A program made the translations under genes and the position numbers. The notes under the pieces were generated by a model, which saw only the letters and a program-made list of their open reading frames with translations, did not search any database and was not told the DNA's origin. From Octopus sinensis (Eukaryota), in NCBI RefSeq assembly GCF_006345805.1, contig NC_043012.1, positions 58,466,001-58,530,000 on the forward strand: a DNA stretch of 64,000 nt. The letters are read 5' to 3'. Below, piece by piece: positions 653 to 60,744 of this stretch; the stretch's first letter is position 1, and each line of letters starts with the position of its first letter.

Positions 653-1097
653 TAATAATAATAATGATAATAATAATGGTAACGATGTCGTTGACATTGA
701 TAGTAGAAATGACGGCAATGATAACAGCAACATCACGAACAATTCACCCATAACTACCCTAGTCTTTAGCTTGTCCACTAGTAGCACTACCTCATCTCTC
801 TCTCCAACAAACCATCGTGGAACTGATAGCTGCAATTGCAGATCTGGGACAAACTGTCCTCTGCAAGCCCATTGTAGAAAATTCAACGTCGTATACCATT
901 GTACCGTTCACAACATAGAAATTAACTCCAATAGATACTACATTGGATCAACCACAATTTTAAAGCCAAGATGTTATGCACATTTAAACTCTTTTAAATA
1001 TAAAGAGAACAGCAATTCCACATCACTAGCCAGCCATATAATTAATAGAAACATACAATGTAGACTTTCCTGGGCTATAATAGATTTGGGTGTATAA
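288..1097 (+). pseudogene. PLE GIY-YIG endonuclease ORF fragment with Asn/Thr-rich linker; frameshifted upstream (frame +1 stop at 247-249) and lacking the usual C-terminus
   Basis: CNCRSGTNCPLQAHCRKFNVVYHCTV...RYYIGSTTILKPRCYAHLNSF...STSLASHI...LSWAII matches the PLE endonuclease pattern. Confidence 0.8.
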
Positions 1098-2712: not shown

Positions 2713-3115
2713 CCTTTTGTCTTTTATTTGTCTCTGTCATTTGATAGCGGTCATGCTGGGGCTTCGCTTTAAAGAAATTTTTAGTCGAATGAATCGACCC
2801 CTGTACTTACTTACGTAGTTTTTAAAAACCGGGTACTGATGCTGTTGATAGATTTTGCCGAACCACTAATGTTACAGGGACGTAAACAAACCAACACCAA
2901 TTGTCAATCAGTAGTGGGGGACAAAGAGAGACTCAAAAATACATACACACACACGCACACAAATACAAGCACACACATACACACTCACATACACGCGCGC
3001 ATACATGCACACACGTATGCATATATCATGGGATAAGCTTTGTCAACCAAATTTCACTCATAATCCTATTGAACGCCCGGGGCAACAGATACACTTGCCG
3101 AAGATGCCACGACAA
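2713..3115 (-). mobile_element. SINE family 1, degenerate copy lacking its head
   Basis: Similar to 3189-3556 and 29863-30513. Confidence 0.65.
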
Positions 3116-3188
3116 TGAAAGAGAAAGAAAGAAGAGGAGAGAGGGGCAGAAAGATAGGAATGCGAGAAAGAGGGACATAAAGAGAATT

Positions 3189-3556
3189 CTTTTACTCTTT
3201 TACTTGTTTCAGTCATTTGACTGCAGCCATGCTGGAGCACCACCTTAAAGTCGAGCAAATCGACGCCAGGACTTATTCTTTGTAAGCCTAGTAATTATGC
3301 TATCGGTCTCTTTGCCGAACCGCTAAGTTACGGGGACGTAAACACACTAGCATTGGTTGTCAACACACACACTTATAAACATATACATATAAACGACGGG
3401 CTTCTTTCAATTTCCGTCTAACGAATCCACTCACAAGGCTTTGGTCGGCCCGAGGCTATAGTAGAAGACACTTGCCCAACGTGCCACGCAGAGGGACTGA
3501 ACCCGGAACCATGTGGTTGGTAAGCAAGCTACTTACCACACGACCCCTCCTGCGCC
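3189..3556 (-). mobile_element. tRNA-derived SINE family 1
   Basis: Pol III B-box-like GGTTCAGTCCC, TTGGGCAAGTGTCTT core, internal (CA/TA)n and (GTAAAAGA)n-type tail. Many copies in the window. Confidence 0.85.
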
Positions 3557-4227
3557 CAGAAATCGATACCCTGTACATAACTGGTATAATATATATGTGA
3601 AATCTGAAGAAATGAAGAGAAAACAGTGCAGAGAGCAGAAACATAGCATAACAGAGTCTCTCCCAGCGATCTAACAAATCTGTAGTAGTGAATGGTTAAA
3701 ATAATTAATACGTTGATGAAGTAGTTAAGATAATTAATGGCATCTGATACTTCTAAGAACTAATGGAATATGCAAATTGCAAGTTACGTGATACGATAGC
3801 TATGATAACAAAATATGATATTGCAATAGCTAATTCACTAGGGTGTTTTGATAATTAATATCACTTAAGACGTATAAATTGGCGAGTCTGCACTATAGTC
3901 ATATCAATTTGTCGAATGGTTTTTATAGTTATTTCCTCTTCAAGTAGGTTGAAAAGGTTTTAGAAATTGTATGTATGTATGTCACAGCGTTCCGTTGAGG
4001 GATCATTTAAAAAAAAGACAGAGAGAGACTTTTGTTTAAGTCAAATGATACTAATATTTATATTTATAACTATGACTCAGAAAAAGAACAGTCTTCAGCT
4101 CTACATAAATGAGACAGTATACATATATTTACATATACAAACACGTGCACACACACATATATATATATCTATATCTATACACACATATATATATACATAC
4201 ATACACACACACACACGCACACACAGA

Positions 4228-4266
<39 letters not shown>

Positions 4267-4291
4267 ACGCGTAAAAATATGCACGTATCCT

Positions 4292-4700
4292 ATTTACTCT
4301 CTTTTACTTGTTTCAGTTATTTGACTGAGGCCATGCTGAAGCACAGCCTTTAGTCGAGCAAATCAACCCCACGACTTATTCTTTGTAAGCCTAGTACTTA
4401 TTCTATCGTTCTCTTATGCCGAACCACCAAGTTACGGCAACGTAAACACACTACCATCGGTTGTCAAGCGATGCTGGTGGGTGAACAAAGACAGTCACAC
4501 AAACACACACACACACACATATGTATATACATACAAACGACGGGCTTGTTTCAGTGTCCGTCTACCAAATCCATTCATAAGGTTTTGGTCGGTCCGAGGC
4601 TATAGTAGAAGACACTTGCCCAAGGTGCCACACAGTGGGACTGAAGCCGGAACCATGTCGTTGGTAAGCAAGCTACTTACCACACAGCAACTCCTGCGTC
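4292..4700 (-). mobile_element. tRNA-derived SINE family 1
   Basis: Colinear with 3189-3556. Confidence 0.85.
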
Positions 4701-5773
4701 TATATTAATATATATGCAAATATATATACATATATATACAAACATCTATTATCTACATGTATGTGTGCCTATACATATAAAGACACACACATATATATTA
4801 AATACGCACACGCACATATATATATATATACACACATAGACATACAGACATACACACTTGTATATAAACATACACACGCATAATCACACGCATATGTGCA
4901 TATCTTATCCTTGGGGAATTGAATTCTTATCTGAGTTTCAATAAGCGTCAGATGGCTAACGGTGGTGGTGATACAGTATAATAGTCATACGGATATCATA
5001 AGTCGCTCCAAAAGAAGGGAAATAGCACCACTATTTCTGAACCTTTTAAATAGCAAACATGCTAAACAATAATTATATATTTTAAGAAAAGATGAAAGAG
5101 CAAGAGAGAGAAAGAGAGAGGGAGACATAAATATATATATATATAGAGAGAGAGGTGGAGGGGTGAGAAAAGTCAAGAGGAGTTTTCTTTTTTTTTTTTT
5201 CTTTTTTTCAAAAATTCAGATGGCAAAGAATGTTTTTCTATTTGAACTACCTCTTGGGAAACATCTTGAAGAACTATTTAAATCGATCAAGTTTCGTCGA
5301 CGTGATAACTATCTGAGGTCATCAAACGGAGGTTAGTGAATACGAACATCTTTTCTGAGAACGAAATTAAATATTAAACGAAAAATATAAATAAAAAAGC
5401 CAACAAAAAATTTAAAAAATAACAACGGAAGACTGCAGGCGTCGTTCCGTTTTATTTTTTTTTATTATCATTATTATATTACATGTATTTATTTATTTTC
5501 ATTTCATTTTTAATAAATTCTGGGATATCAATTCCTACTAGATGGTCGATGATTAAAGACTAATGAAATATTAAATGAAACAAACATTCGCGATAAGAGG
5601 CTTACTAAATAATATATGACAGACAAAGCCATTTGCTGTGCAGCGCGATTCGTTTCATCGCAATTTCAATTTTCATCCCAATGTAGAAATTTTCGATATG
5701 CAGAGAAATAAAAAAAAAATCGACGAACGAACTACAGCAAAGAAATTATGCTATACATAAACATGCATAGATG

Positions 5774-12689: not shown

Positions 12690-12966
12690 TTGTCCGTTTT
12701 TCCGTCCTTGTGTTTGTATACATTCGATGCTTTCTTCCAAGGAATCTAATGCTCTTACCTTAGATTTTCCTCGGGGCTGACCAGATTGGAGCAATCTCAA
12801 GATTAATCAGCCGAAATTGGGAGGATGATCCGGTTCTTGACTGAGGATAGAAGGCTTCGAATGACCCGTCCTTGTTTTTTTGTATCGTCTATCTGGATAT
12901 TTTGTTCTCCCTTTTTTGTATCACCTAGTTGTCCGGATGTTTTGCGTTCTTGTCCCATTTTGTATT
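12690..12966 (+). mobile_element. Short dispersed element (family B) carrying a permuted hammerhead-like RNA motif at 12721-12863
   Basis: Homologous to 28141-28376 (-). Its 3' end abuts (TA)n. See findings for the structure. Confidence 0.75.
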
Positions 12967-28140: not shown

Positions 28141-28376
28141 AATACAAAAAACGGGACAAGAACGCAAAACATCCAGACATACGATACAAAAAACAAAGAC
28201 GGGTCATTCGGAGTTTTCTGTCTTTAGTCGAGTTCCGGATTATCTTTGCAATTTCGGCTGGTGAGATTACTCCAATCCGGCCAGCCCCAAGGAAAAACTA
28301 AACTAAGAGCACTAGATTCCTTAGAAAAAAACAGCGAATGAATACGAAAACAAAGACTGTATACGAAAGCAAGAAC
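28141..28376 (-). mobile_element. Family B element, second copy (motif at 28205-28340)
   Basis: Reverse complement aligns to 12690-12966. Confidence 0.75.
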
Positions 28377-30105: not shown

Positions 30106-30513
30106 AAAGTTTACGAAAAAACAAAAGACGAAGACACGTGGTGTACAAAACAAACAGATGTATTAGTATAACGCTCAGGAATAGAAAAAGTCTTTTACGT
30201 TTCGAGTCTACGCTCTTCTACAGAAAAGTACACAGAAAACACAAGGAGAGAAAAAATGTGATATATATATATAAATATATATATATGTGTGTGTGTTTGT
30301 TTGTGTGTCTGTGTTTGTCCCCCCAACATCACTTGACAATCAATGCTGGTGTGTTTTCCCTGTAACTTAGCAGTTCGGCAAAAGAACCGATAGAATAAGT
30401 ACTAGGGGTCGATTTGCTTGACTAGAATAAGTATTGGGGTCGAGTTGCTCGACTAAAGGCGGTGCTCCAGCATGGCCGCAGTCAAATGACTGAAACAAGT
30501 AAAAGAGTAAAAG
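29863..30513 (+). mobile_element. SINE family 1 with an HHR element nested in its internal (TA)n
   Basis: Full head and tail of family 1. The segment 30102-30260 is foreign. Confidence 0.85.
30102..30260 (-). mobile_element. HHR family C short element
   Basis: Minus strand CTTTT-CTGTAGA-A-GAG..CTC-GAAACGTA-AAAG at 30192-30228. Shares tattagt...acgctcagga with family D. Confidence 0.7.
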
Positions 30514-36759: not shown

Positions 36760-37225
36760 TTAAAAAAAACGTTGAACACAATGAGAAACGAAAATAAGAA
36801 CAAAAACATAGAAACGAACCTTTTTTCGAACAACGCAAAAAAAAAACAAACAAACAGAGAAACGAGACATGAAACGTAAAGAATATTCCCCTTCTTCAGT
36901 TGTTCCTGTTTCATATACTTCGCGTTCCGAAGGCAAGGACAAGACGCGACTTCGTTGAAACTGTCTTTCCTGCAAAGCAAATTAAATAAAATTTAGGGTT
37001 TTCTGCGGGGGGTGAAAGTGGTAACAAGAACAGGAGAGTAAGAACAAAAAAGTAAAAACAAACATTGAGGGTTGTTAAGCCAAGTCGATAGAGAAATTCT
37101 TCCGAACGCTAGGAGGACGAGCTTATGAAGGAGACAGTATAAGCACGTTGTTGTCTTTACGAAGGTAGTAGTCAGAAAGGCAGATTCTCTTTCGTCACGT
37201 GTCAGCGACGAGAGAGTCGAGGAGG
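36760..37225 (-). mobile_element. Family B-like element, divergent (motif about 36886-37017), possibly preceded by a decayed GIY-YIG C-terminus
   Basis: Minus strand TCGCG-TC-TTGTCC...C-GGAA-CGCGA...GGAACAA-CTGAAGA. Upstream broken peptide LSRR..KENLPF*LLP...RSEEFLYR. Confidence 0.6.
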
Positions 37226-37239
37226 ATATATATATATAT

Positions 37240-37401
37240 AGTGGCTGTGTGGTAAGTAGCTTGCTAACCAACCACATGGTTCCGGGTTCCGGGTTCAGTC
37301 CCACTGCGTGGCATCTTGGGCAAGTGTCTTCTGCTATAGCCTCGGGCCGACCAATGCCTTGTGAGTGCATTTGGTAGACGGAATCTGAAAGAAGCCTGTC
37401 G

Positions 37402-37442
<41 letters not shown>

Positions 37443-37655
37443 CTGTGTTTGTCACCCTAGCATTGCTTGATAACCGATGCTGATGTATTTACGTCCCCGT
37501 CACTTAGCGGTTCGGCAAAAAGAGACCGATAGAATAAGTACTGGGCTTACAAAGAATAAGTCCCGGGGTCGATTTGTTCGACTAAAGGCGGTGCTCCAGC
37601 ATGGCCGCAGTCAAATGACTGAAACAAGTAAAAGAGTAAAAGAGAGAGTAAAGAG
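37240..37655 (+). mobile_element. SINE family 1, well preserved
   Basis: TGGCTGTGTGG A-box, GGTTCAGTCCC B-box and full tail. Confidence 0.9.
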
Positions 37656-58053: not shown

Positions 58054-58407
58054 TTATTGTATGGAAAGTGTTCTGCGTAGGATGTGTGCAGTGCTTAGTA
58101 GTGCAATTTTCTGTATATTATATGTGTTTGTAAGTCCTGGTGTTTTTGTTATGTATTTGTCTGAATATTTTTTTATCATGCCTAATGCACCTACTATGAT
58201 AGGAATTGTTTCTGTTTTCAGATTCCACATTCTAGTTACCTCTATTTCCAGGTCTTTATATTTTGAGAGTTTCTCCATTTCTTTTAGAGACACGTTGTCA
58301 TCAGCCGGTATTGATACATCAATTAGAAAGCATTTTTTTTCTTCATGATCTCTGACAACTATATCTGATCTGTTGGCCTTAATTTCTCTATCTGTGTGTA
58401 TCGGCAT
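58054..58407 (-). pseudogene. RLE (PD-D/ExK) endonuclease portion of the LINE ORF
   Basis: NRSDIVVRD...FLIDVSIP...EKLSKYKDL...PIIVGALG. Confidence 0.9.
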
Positions 58408-59799
58408 ATCCCAGAGTATGGTTGCTTTCTCGTTTTCTGTGACCTTTTCTGGTTGTGTGCCTATAACATCTTTTTTCTGTTGTTACTCCATAATGTTGGC
58501 ATAGCTTCCAATGTATGTAGGTTCCAACTCTGTCATGTCTGTGATATATTCCTTCTTAGCCAGGACTGGGCAGCTAGAGATAATATGATTTATTGTTTCT
58601 TGTCCATCTCCACATATTCTGCAGTTACTTGTAATATTTCTTTTCATTACATGTTTCTGGTAATTTCTGGTGGGGAGGCTTTGGTCTTGTGCCGCAATTA
58701 AAAATCCCTCTGTTTCTGCTTTGAGTCCTGAGCTTCTCAAACATGCTGGGATTTTTCTTTGTCTATTTCTTTTGCGTTTAGTTTAGTCCAGTATTTACCA
58801 TGAAGGGGCTTTTCTTGCCATCGTTTTATCATGGTTCGTTGCTGTTATATTTTTAGTTTGGATTTCATTTTTTTATAGCTTTTGTTGCTTCTTCATCTTC
58901 TTCTTCTTCTTCATTTTTATTAGGTGGTATGATTTCTTGTTTGTATTTGTCAGCTTCCTTAAATACTGAGAACAGTTTTTGTTTTGCTCGTGTTTTGCCG
59001 CTATCTGGATCAGTTTTCCTTCCTTCTGAAGTAGATATTTCTGCAGTCCTATGATGGTTATTTTATAGTAGTTTTCCAGCTGTATAAGGCCTCTACCACC
59101 TTCTATACGTTGTATATATAGTCTTTCTATGTCAGATTTTGGGTGATGCGTCCTAGATCCTGTCATTATTTTTCTTGTTTTCCTATCTATTTTGGTCAGT
59201 TCATTTCGTGTCCAGTTAAGGATATTGTAGCTGTAACTTATAACTGGGACAGCTAAAGTGTTGATACCTATTATCTTGTTTTTAGCATTGAGCTCTGTGT
59301 TAGTATTGATCTAATTCGTCTATAATATTCTTTTTTATTTTCTCTTTCATTGTGTGTGTTGTGTCTTATCTAGTTCATGGATTCCTAAGTATTTGTAAGT
59401 TTGGCTTTGGTCTAATTCTTTTATTTCATTGGTTTTATCTAGTGTGATGTTGTTGCTCTTAACTAGTTTTCCTCTTTTCATGGTTACTTTGGCGCATTTT
59501 TCTAATCCAAAATTTTATATCTATTTCTTTGGTAAATCCATGAACTGTCTTAATAGTGTTTCCAGCTGTTTGTCATTTGCAGCGTATAGTTTTAGGTCAT
59601 CCATATAAAAGGTGGCTGATCGTTCTGCCGTAACATTATATCCGCATCCAGTTCTATTAGCATATCAGATAGAGGTGACAGTGCCAAGCAGAAAAGGAGT
59701 GGAGAGAGCGTGTCTCCCTGGAATATTCCTCTTCTAATGGGGATTGTCTTTGGTTTTCATGAGTCCCTCTTTTGTTTGGGGTGTGTAGGACTGTTGCCA

Positions 59800-60099
59800 T
59801 TATTCATAGAGTGCTCTATGAATTTTATGATGTTGTTGTGCTACTTTGTTAATGGCTAGTGTTTCGAGGATCCATGTGTGGGGGATGCTATCAAACGCCT
59901 TTTTGTAGTCAATCCAGGCCATACTGAGGCCTTTCTTCTTTCTGTGGCTGTCTTCAGTTATGGCTTTATTAATCATTAGTTGATCTTTACAGCCATATGA
60001 GCCTTTGCGGCATCCTTTCTGCTCTTCTGGGAACAGTTTGTTTTCGTCCAGGTGCTTGTTCAGCCTTTGTGATATCACTGCAGTAAATGCCTTGAACAT
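59800..60099 (-). pseudogene. Reverse transcriptase portion of the LINE ORF
   Basis: EEQKGCRKG...MAWIDYKKAFDSIPH. Confidence 0.9.
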
Positions 60100-60744
60100 A
60101 GTAGGGTTATTATTATTATTATTATTATCATTATTATTATTATTATTGTTGTTGTTGTTGTTGTTGTTGTTGTTATTATTATCATTATTATTATCAATAT
60201 CAAGTGAGAGAGCAGCTCATGCCATTAAAATGATACTGGGTTACAAATATACGAAACCCTATACACCCATCATCAGACTCCTCGTCTGATAAGGGTGCAC
60301 GAAGCACATGCGTCACAACCATATGTGCGCAACATGGTGATCTCATATCAAAATAAACAACGCATGCGCTTGCAGGTTGGGCCCAGTCAGAATTTTCTTC
60401 ACGTGGCGTGGCTCATTCCGCTCAAAAGGTCGTTGAATAAGATTCGTTTAAAAATGAAGAATGGAATAGCCATGTTTCAAGAGGTGCATTATTCCAACAC
60501 CCAAAAATTCCTTTCAACATATGGCTATGTTGTTCCTCTACTACTCCTGCACATGATGAAATATGCACATATCGTCAGCCACTAAGGGACATGTTCAAGC
60601 GGTTAAAGTCGAGCAGCTGTCAGGCAAATCTTTGGTATTGAGCAGTATATTTGCTGTAGTCCGTATTTTGCAGGAAGACAAAACATGTATGTTAACACTT
60701 CCAGTTATGAATAGAAGCTATGAGAGCCGCTGCCTGTTCCTTCT

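Follow-up and report, generated by a model that had tools for sequence, protein, structure and literature searches.

A putative hammerhead ribozyme with an opened core in a decayed, Penelope-like repeat of Octopus sinensis

Hammerheads of Penelope-like elements and permuted connectivities

Canonical type I hammerheads (block order CGS) occur in the pseudo-LTRs of Penelope/Poseidon, Neptune, Nematis and Hydra elements, according to the available parts of two studies (Craig et al., 2021, PMC8557442; PMC11167929). In the portions of the former at hand, Naiad elements are reported without canonical hammerheads; some were flagged as "HHR_core" or "HHR_half_core", Naiad_Ovul and Naiad_Esco among them, with half-cores 35–50 nt apart and no structure given. 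The same portions describe a preference of Naiads for insertion into (TA)n. A Naiad ORF has an N-terminal GIY-YIG domain and a CxC motif, and it is the reverse transcriptase (RT), not the endonuclease, that is C-terminal. In a Poseidon element, cleavage required protein, insertion in vitro proceeded without cleavage and no reads ended at the cut site (PMC11167929), so that even an RNA that cuts would leave its cellular function undecided.

Among non-circular permutations, type-SGC (HRIMA-1) and type-CSG were reported to cleave (Eckert et al., 2023, PMC10085705). In the accessible text of that study, such permutations come from metatranscriptomes, with a single weak GCS candidate from bacteria as the exception, and CUGANGA with its adjoining stem I and stem II strands is assumed to be uninterruptible, six wirings then exhausting the possibilities; the known alignments contain no insertion beyond 1–2 nt beside CUGANGA. 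The hammerhead core tolerates insertions of 1–2 nt where its backbone faces outward (Perreault et al., 2011, PMC3088659, in part). Neither permuted hammerheads in Naiads nor helices inserted between A9 and G10.1 are described in the literature that we covered, with subscription papers and bioRxiv supplements largely outside it, and the available text of bioRxiv 10.64898/2026.07.22.740005 describes neither permuted Naiad hammerheads nor the wiring presented here.

We consider it likely that positions 36886..37017 (minus strand) of the octopus DNA analysed here are a dead copy of a doubly unusual hammerhead ribozyme, located at the 3′ end of a Penelope-like retroelement that would most likely be a Naiad or a derivative of one.

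The octopus repeat and the anatomy of its motif

The window, i.e., the whole stretch of 64,000 nt, is AT-rich animal DNA, rich in microsatellites. The motif lies in the 5′-truncated 3′ end of a repeat, hereafter family A (36763..37226, minus strand, about 460 nt), flanked by (TA)n-type tracts. When contigs of four sequencing runs from four organisms were aligned at 80% likeness, loose ends were found at 36762/36763 and at 37226 in all four runs, and 3093–5725 contigs per run matched the repeat, so that family A is a high-copy repeat. No second copy of it was found inside the window, and its motif gave 0 matches in metagenome contigs and 0 in viral contigs. Beyond 37226, other copies carry on in the 5′ direction with common sequence in all four runs. 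Upstream of 37049, the summed contig depth, which does not equal copy number, falls in three of the four runs.

The upstream part of the element (37050..37226, minus strand) had been proposed in the original prediction to encode, at 37080–37225, something resembling a GIY-YIG C-terminus, which would have tied the motif to autonomous Penelope-like elements. This proposal was not borne out: there was no Pfam match in six frames, 0 of 75 candidates were homologous, and no tblastn match was obtained from 30 Naiad-like proteins, a search that did not reveal an RT of family A itself either. A search among 1.84 billion proteins for homologs of this part returned two matches, both rejected because they are tandem-repeat proteins whose scores add up from weak matches. 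A link with Penelope-like elements is instead drawn through the Naiads, whose RT is C-terminal. Insertion into (TA)n and a U-rich tail are present in family A as they are in Naiads, but are not diagnostic of them since they are common to other clades.

Other repeats were observed in the window. Abundant SINE-type repeats adjoin the family A element (37241–37600, minus strand) and occupy seven other places; they appear to resemble octopus SINEs. A GIY-YIG-like ORF piece at 780–1097 (plus strand; PF01541, E 0.012, below the cut-off) is probably a Penelope-like remnant. At 30180–30225 (minus strand), a short TA-flanked repeat carries a remnant resembling a canonical type I hammerhead with a mutated core, a unit presumably typical of other Penelope-like clades. 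Broken ORF pieces of a non-LTR retrotransposon, with RT-like and restriction-endonuclease-like motifs recognized by eye, lie at 58054–60216 (minus strand).

Within the motif, every minus-strand word on which the original prediction was built was recovered in place: GUUUCA (36961–36956), UCGCGUC (36949–36943), UUGUCC (36942–36937), GGAACGCGA (36928–36920, the GGAA core segment followed by a stem III strand), UGAAAC (36913–36908), GGAACAA (36906–36900) and CUGAAGA (36899–36893). The helices listed at that stage hold, but stem II, formed by CCUUC (36933–36929) and 36969–36965, and two outer helices had been missed. Likewise, the pairing of stem I is real, but its supposed bulge is a C.A mismatch within a 7-bp helix, repaired in the family, where the letter at 36904 is G in 97–98% of depth.

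The resulting model comprises 36 pairs, spans about 125 nt and is pseudoknotted; its six helices are P0, P1, II, P4, III and I. From 5′ to 3′ on the minus strand, it begins with the 5′ strand of the outer helix P0 (37009..37012), which pairs with 36889–36892 through three Watson–Crick pairs and a C.A mismatch. The 7-bp hairpin P1 (36970..37008) comes next, directly between P0 and the 5′ strand of stem II (36965..36969, G10.1 being 36969), itself upstream of the cleavage block. The 5′ strand of P4, the GUUUCA helix (36956..36962, pairing with 36907–36913), is followed by block S (36936..36949), composed of a stem III strand, the GUC triplet (36945–36943) and a stem I strand, with the predicted cut between 36943 and 36942, and then by block G (36920..36933), composed of the stem II 3′ strand, GGAA and a stem III strand. 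The 3′ strand of P4 (36907..36913), the stem I strand with the CUGAAGA core (36893..36906; stem I has its 7 bp with the family letter at 36904) and the 3′ strand of P0 (36889..36892), immediately after A9, complete the motif. There are zero linker bases at the P0/P1, P1/II and A9/P0 junctions, and the backbone link between A9 and G10.1 is replaced by two helices, P0 and P1, which hold the chain ends. The upstream stem II strand and the outer helix were predicted for this copy before the read data were examined; the precise pairing registers of P0 and P1 were chosen with knowledge of the family letters.

Regarding the catalytic letters, C3-U4-G5-A6-N7-G8-A9 is present as CUGAAGA (36899–36893), as are the U16.1-A15.1 pair, H17 and the core-adjacent pairs of stems I, II and III, all of them Watson–Crick. 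The segment G12-A13-A14-A15.1 fails in this copy, which reads GGAA at 36928–36925, as had been noticed at the outset. Since any core change is treated as disqualifying in the accessible part of Perreault et al. (2011, PMC3088659), the copy should be inactive; from its GGAA and its five mismatched pairs, it probably is.

Alternative pairings exist within the repeat. In this copy, a second GUUUCA (36875–36870) could pair with UGAAAC, which would connect the distal sides of stems I and II by a helix; P4 is preferred because the family has other letters at 36876 and 36872 (98–99% of depth). When the letters of the family are used, the 5′ strand of stem II (36968–36963) can also pair with the stem I strand (36940–36935), a possible off-state of family A that was unseen in the other families.

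Taken by itself, this copy is not significant and is suggestive only. It ranked first in the window in a three-block hammerhead search (33, vs. 25 for the next), but local dinucleotide shuffles reached this score in 214 of 1043 cases in any block order and in 41 of 1043 in SGC order. On a five-helix descriptor, its score of 46 was equalled by 34 of 1103 window shuffles. Its folding energy was unremarkable (z −0.09 and −0.65), and an Rfam scan of the window gave no hammerhead family among the 150 matches listed of 356, which were mostly microsatellite noise. Pairing by chance within an old repeat would account for these values, 3–20% of shuffled windows reaching the scores of the single copy. 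We nevertheless hold it to be very improbable: the independent read data, which restore all mismatches and GAAA, largely refute it, and the layout recurs in unrelated families at the same position of the element. The case for a hammerhead indeed stands on this family and cross-family evidence, not on the single copy.

Family letters and recurrence in other elements

The majority letters of family A were obtained from the contigs of the four runs at 80% likeness, with 40 listed of 89 differences. Fourteen of the listed differences fall within 36886–37017, and for twelve of these the changed letter is in the majority in three or four of the runs. In the 36-pair model, this copy has 29 Watson–Crick pairs, 2 G-U pairs and 5 mismatches, vs. 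34, 2 and 0 with the majority letters; when these 12 changes were placed at random 200,000 times, no placement was as good. The C.A mismatch of P0 becomes U-A (94–99%), the P1 mismatch at 36971 is repaired (80–87%), the P1 G-U pair at 37003 becomes A-U (98–100%), the A.C of stem II at 36966 becomes G-C (93–97%) and P4 is lengthened to 7 bp by the letter at 36962 (94–99%), while a single majority change converts a stem III A-U pair to G-U. Position 17 is C or A (15–59% A), both being allowed by the NUH rule.

The original prediction had proposed the return of GAAA in a family consensus as a check. GAAA was regained, as were the pairings, with A at 36927 in 54, 61, 64 and 68% of depth; the remaining 32–46% of family A depth is without this A of GAAA (A13). 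As the letter of this copy is rare at the other diagnostic sites, the A13-less share is probably a real and large subfamily whose core is damaged or relaxed, and this argues against a strict constraint on catalysis. Polymorphic family sites were observed at 36927, 36934, 36943 and 36971, at 13–68%; they suggest subfamilies, in one of which GGAA may be fixed. When the sequence with majority letters was folded by a nested method, which leaves pseudoknots aside and for which 40 of the 89 differences were used, the result was a probability of 0.93 for P0, 0.06 for P1, P4 and stem III and 0 for stems I and II, the low values arising because a competing fold wins.

The same architecture was found in a second family. 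The cross-family descriptor consists of five of the helices and contains no family sequence, although it was drawn with these sequences in view. It matched the window three times: at 12.7 kb (62), at the family A copy (46) and in one SINE (39); with its majority letters, family A scored 73. The 12.7-kb match is a family B copy with an intact core (12721..12863, plus strand, predicted cut between 12796 and 12797), whose score was reached by 0 of 1103 shuffles and whose folding z was −2.63. That both motifs share an order of elements under different helix sequences, as originally predicted, was upheld: both match the descriptor, their helix sequences are unrelated and blastn gave no match between them. 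The comparison with shuffles, also suggested at that stage, was clear for the 12.7-kb motif and weak for the family A copy alone. A second, more decayed family B copy (28200..28345, minus strand), 78% identical to the first, has a damaged core and stem I, and scored 52 at looser thresholds.

Published Naiad 3′ ends were then compared, 53 of the 54 consensus ends in the supplement of Craig et al. (2021, PMC8557442) being read by eye, mostly over their last ~280 bases. The opened layout was complete in six, from Acropora, Clytia and Octopus hosts (Amil, Aacu, Anas, 3_Chem, Obim and Ovul), which amount to three independent sequences because the Acropora and the Octopus sets are each near-identical, and partial in two others (Bfor and Esco). 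In Naiad_Obim and Naiad_Ovul, the stem II partner lies upstream of the cleavage block. Six nematode Naiads (Nbra 1–3, Hcon, Hpol and Asuum) were parsed as type-CSG hammerheads with their three stems paired, and two spider Naiads (Ptep and Smim) in S-G-C order, stem II following the core at a short distance in Smim; no full hammerhead was parsed by eye in the remaining 37 ends. CUGANGA, GAAA, U16.1-A15.1 and H17 are conserved across phyla, while every helix sequence differs. The nematode CSG hammerheads are clean and have an extra helix between stems I and II, this type being known from two similar sequences. Many bivalve and hemichordate families, and Naiad-1/2_Chem, have a different conserved 3′ motif, devoid of CUGANGA, which weighs against the hammerhead reading. 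A word search of family A against the supplement consensuses, in which line breaks could hide matches, gave five matches, none of them in a matching 3′ end. On the basis of architecture, position and flanks, we assign family A to Naiad with fair confidence. The recurrence in Naiads of other phyla is in line with the early claim that the architecture is selected and old, although homology and convergence are not distinguished by it.

These ends also bear on a simpler wiring of family A, that of an ordinary type-SGC hammerhead, in which stem II would be built from the purine run after CUGAAGA (36891–36888 with 36929–36932), P0, P1 and the upstream strand being accessory or part of an off-state. 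Four pairs can form there, the linker from S to G is short as in HRIMA-1 (PMC10085705, in part), and the spider Naiads, with their S-G-C order and the nearby stem II of Smim, offer a parallel. We find this wiring quite unlikely, as the downstream helix consists of two G-C and two G-U pairs with a duplex energy of 0.0 kcal/mol, vs. −4.6 kcal/mol for the five upstream Watson–Crick pairs, and is impossible in the coral, Clytia and Octopus Naiads, where only the upstream strand pairs.

A metagenome scan with the Acropora Naiad motif gave at least 120 loci, and 84 of those listed belong to the family of that motif, here called coral-type. Among the listed coral-type loci with enough upstream DNA, 20 of 51 scored 49–76 on the descriptor and 31 of 51 scored 0, many of the latter being cut inside the motif; 5 of 40 other listed loci scored. 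GAAA was intact at locus L011, as it was in the 12.7-kb copy. In 16 coral-type copies, 93.7% of cells pair, vs. 28–45% in slid controls, and double changes occur at three pairs, a result equalled by 4 of 500 shuffles; these copies were hand-chosen as full length, and their alignment, 90% identical, reflects mostly neutral decay. At another locus, L007, an ORF ends 344 nt upstream of the motif, and this ORF retrieved the 30 Naiad-like proteins used above. In 8 of the 9 loci with a tblastn match, the motif is preceded on its own strand by the end of a Naiad-like RT, L007 being the source of the query. One protein, P0019, presents by eye GIY-YIG-like, CxC, DKA and RT segments in Naiad order; its Pfam search gave a weak RVT_1 match only (E 0.017) and no GIY-YIG match. 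Among the 54 listed coral-type copies that do not stop at contig ends (30 of 84 were left out for this reason), 5′ ends do not concentrate sharply at the predicted cut site: 18 copies stop in the interval from 14 nt downstream of it to 1 nt upstream, spread out, and the search pattern and ungapped matching bias these counts.

In another reading, the fold is real and hammerhead-derived but noncatalytic, a 3′ RNA signal bound by the RT of the element, with core letters kept for shape or protein contact. It would fit the large A13-less share of family A, the scattered 5′ ends of the coral-type copies, the Poseidon element, whose insertion in vitro is independent of cleavage and for which no reads ended at the cut site (PMC11167929), and the break between A9 and G10.1, unprecedented in the parts of the hammerhead literature covered. 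It is nonetheless, in our opinion, unlikely: CUGANGA, GAAA, U16.1-A15.1 and H17 are kept across phyla despite changed helices, and the nematode relatives, parsed by eye, are textbook type-CSG hammerheads. A catalytic motif, probably dead in the copy of the window, remains the preferred reading.

Proposed mechanism and comparison with described hammerheads

From a mechanistic point of view, the motif may be regarded as a non-circular, SGC-type connectivity whose backbone is opened between A9 and G10.1, A9 entering P0 and G10.1 being entered from P1. P0 and P1 would meet stem II and the core in a four-way junction. The core of an intact element would fold like that of any hammerhead and cut after NUH, and the cutting may process transcripts of tandem elements, as proposed for the canonical hammerheads of these elements. 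Folding would finish only once the whole unit is transcribed, because the first and the last strands close the junction.

On a broader scale, the sequences incline us, with moderate confidence, to the view that Naiads from various animal phyla bear hammerheads that are active and non-circularly permuted. Those of nematodes would be of type CSG and those of spiders SGC-like, and the Naiads of cephalopods, cnidarians and a ctenophore would have a seventh wiring, whose core is opened between A9 and G10.1 by a four-way junction. If true, this would overturn the description of Naiads as lacking hammerheads (PMC8557442, available portions) and the assumption of three uninterruptible blocks, hence of only six wirings (PMC10085705, accessible text). 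Non-circular permutations, so far a feature of anonymous metatranscriptome RNAs, would be placed in the genomes of named animals, in high copy number; no earlier non-circularly permuted hammerhead would be known from a eukaryotic genome, and the metatranscriptome ones could originate from such genomes. The role of ribozymes in Penelope-like elements would become testable in the clade thought to be the exception, and the helix pair grafted into the core would offer a new insertion point for engineered switches.

Comparison with the described systems, as far as their available texts allow, places the motif as follows. At family level, it passes all sequence tests applied for a hammerhead and is outside type SGC as defined. 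Like type-SGC, it has the S-G-C order, a short linker from S to G, the core letters (family majority) and at least two pseudoknots. By contrast, an intact block C is lacking, since the Watson–Crick partner of CCUUC lies upstream; P0 and P1 are placed between A9 and G10.1, P4 lengthens stem III, and the host sequences are animal retroelements, unlike type-SGC (PMC10085705). Canonical type I hammerheads share with family A the sense strand, the location near the 3′ end of the element and the same catalytic letters, but they are nested and minimal, whereas family A has about 125 nt and six pseudoknotted helices; the nested order C, G, S of canonical type I and retrozyme hammerheads is absent, the order here being S, G, C. 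With respect to tolerated insertions, two helices and the chain ends are accommodated, vs. 1–2 nt in PMC3088659. Finally, the remarks on half-cores in Naiads (PMC8557442) concern the same place as the family A motif, the 3′ UTR.
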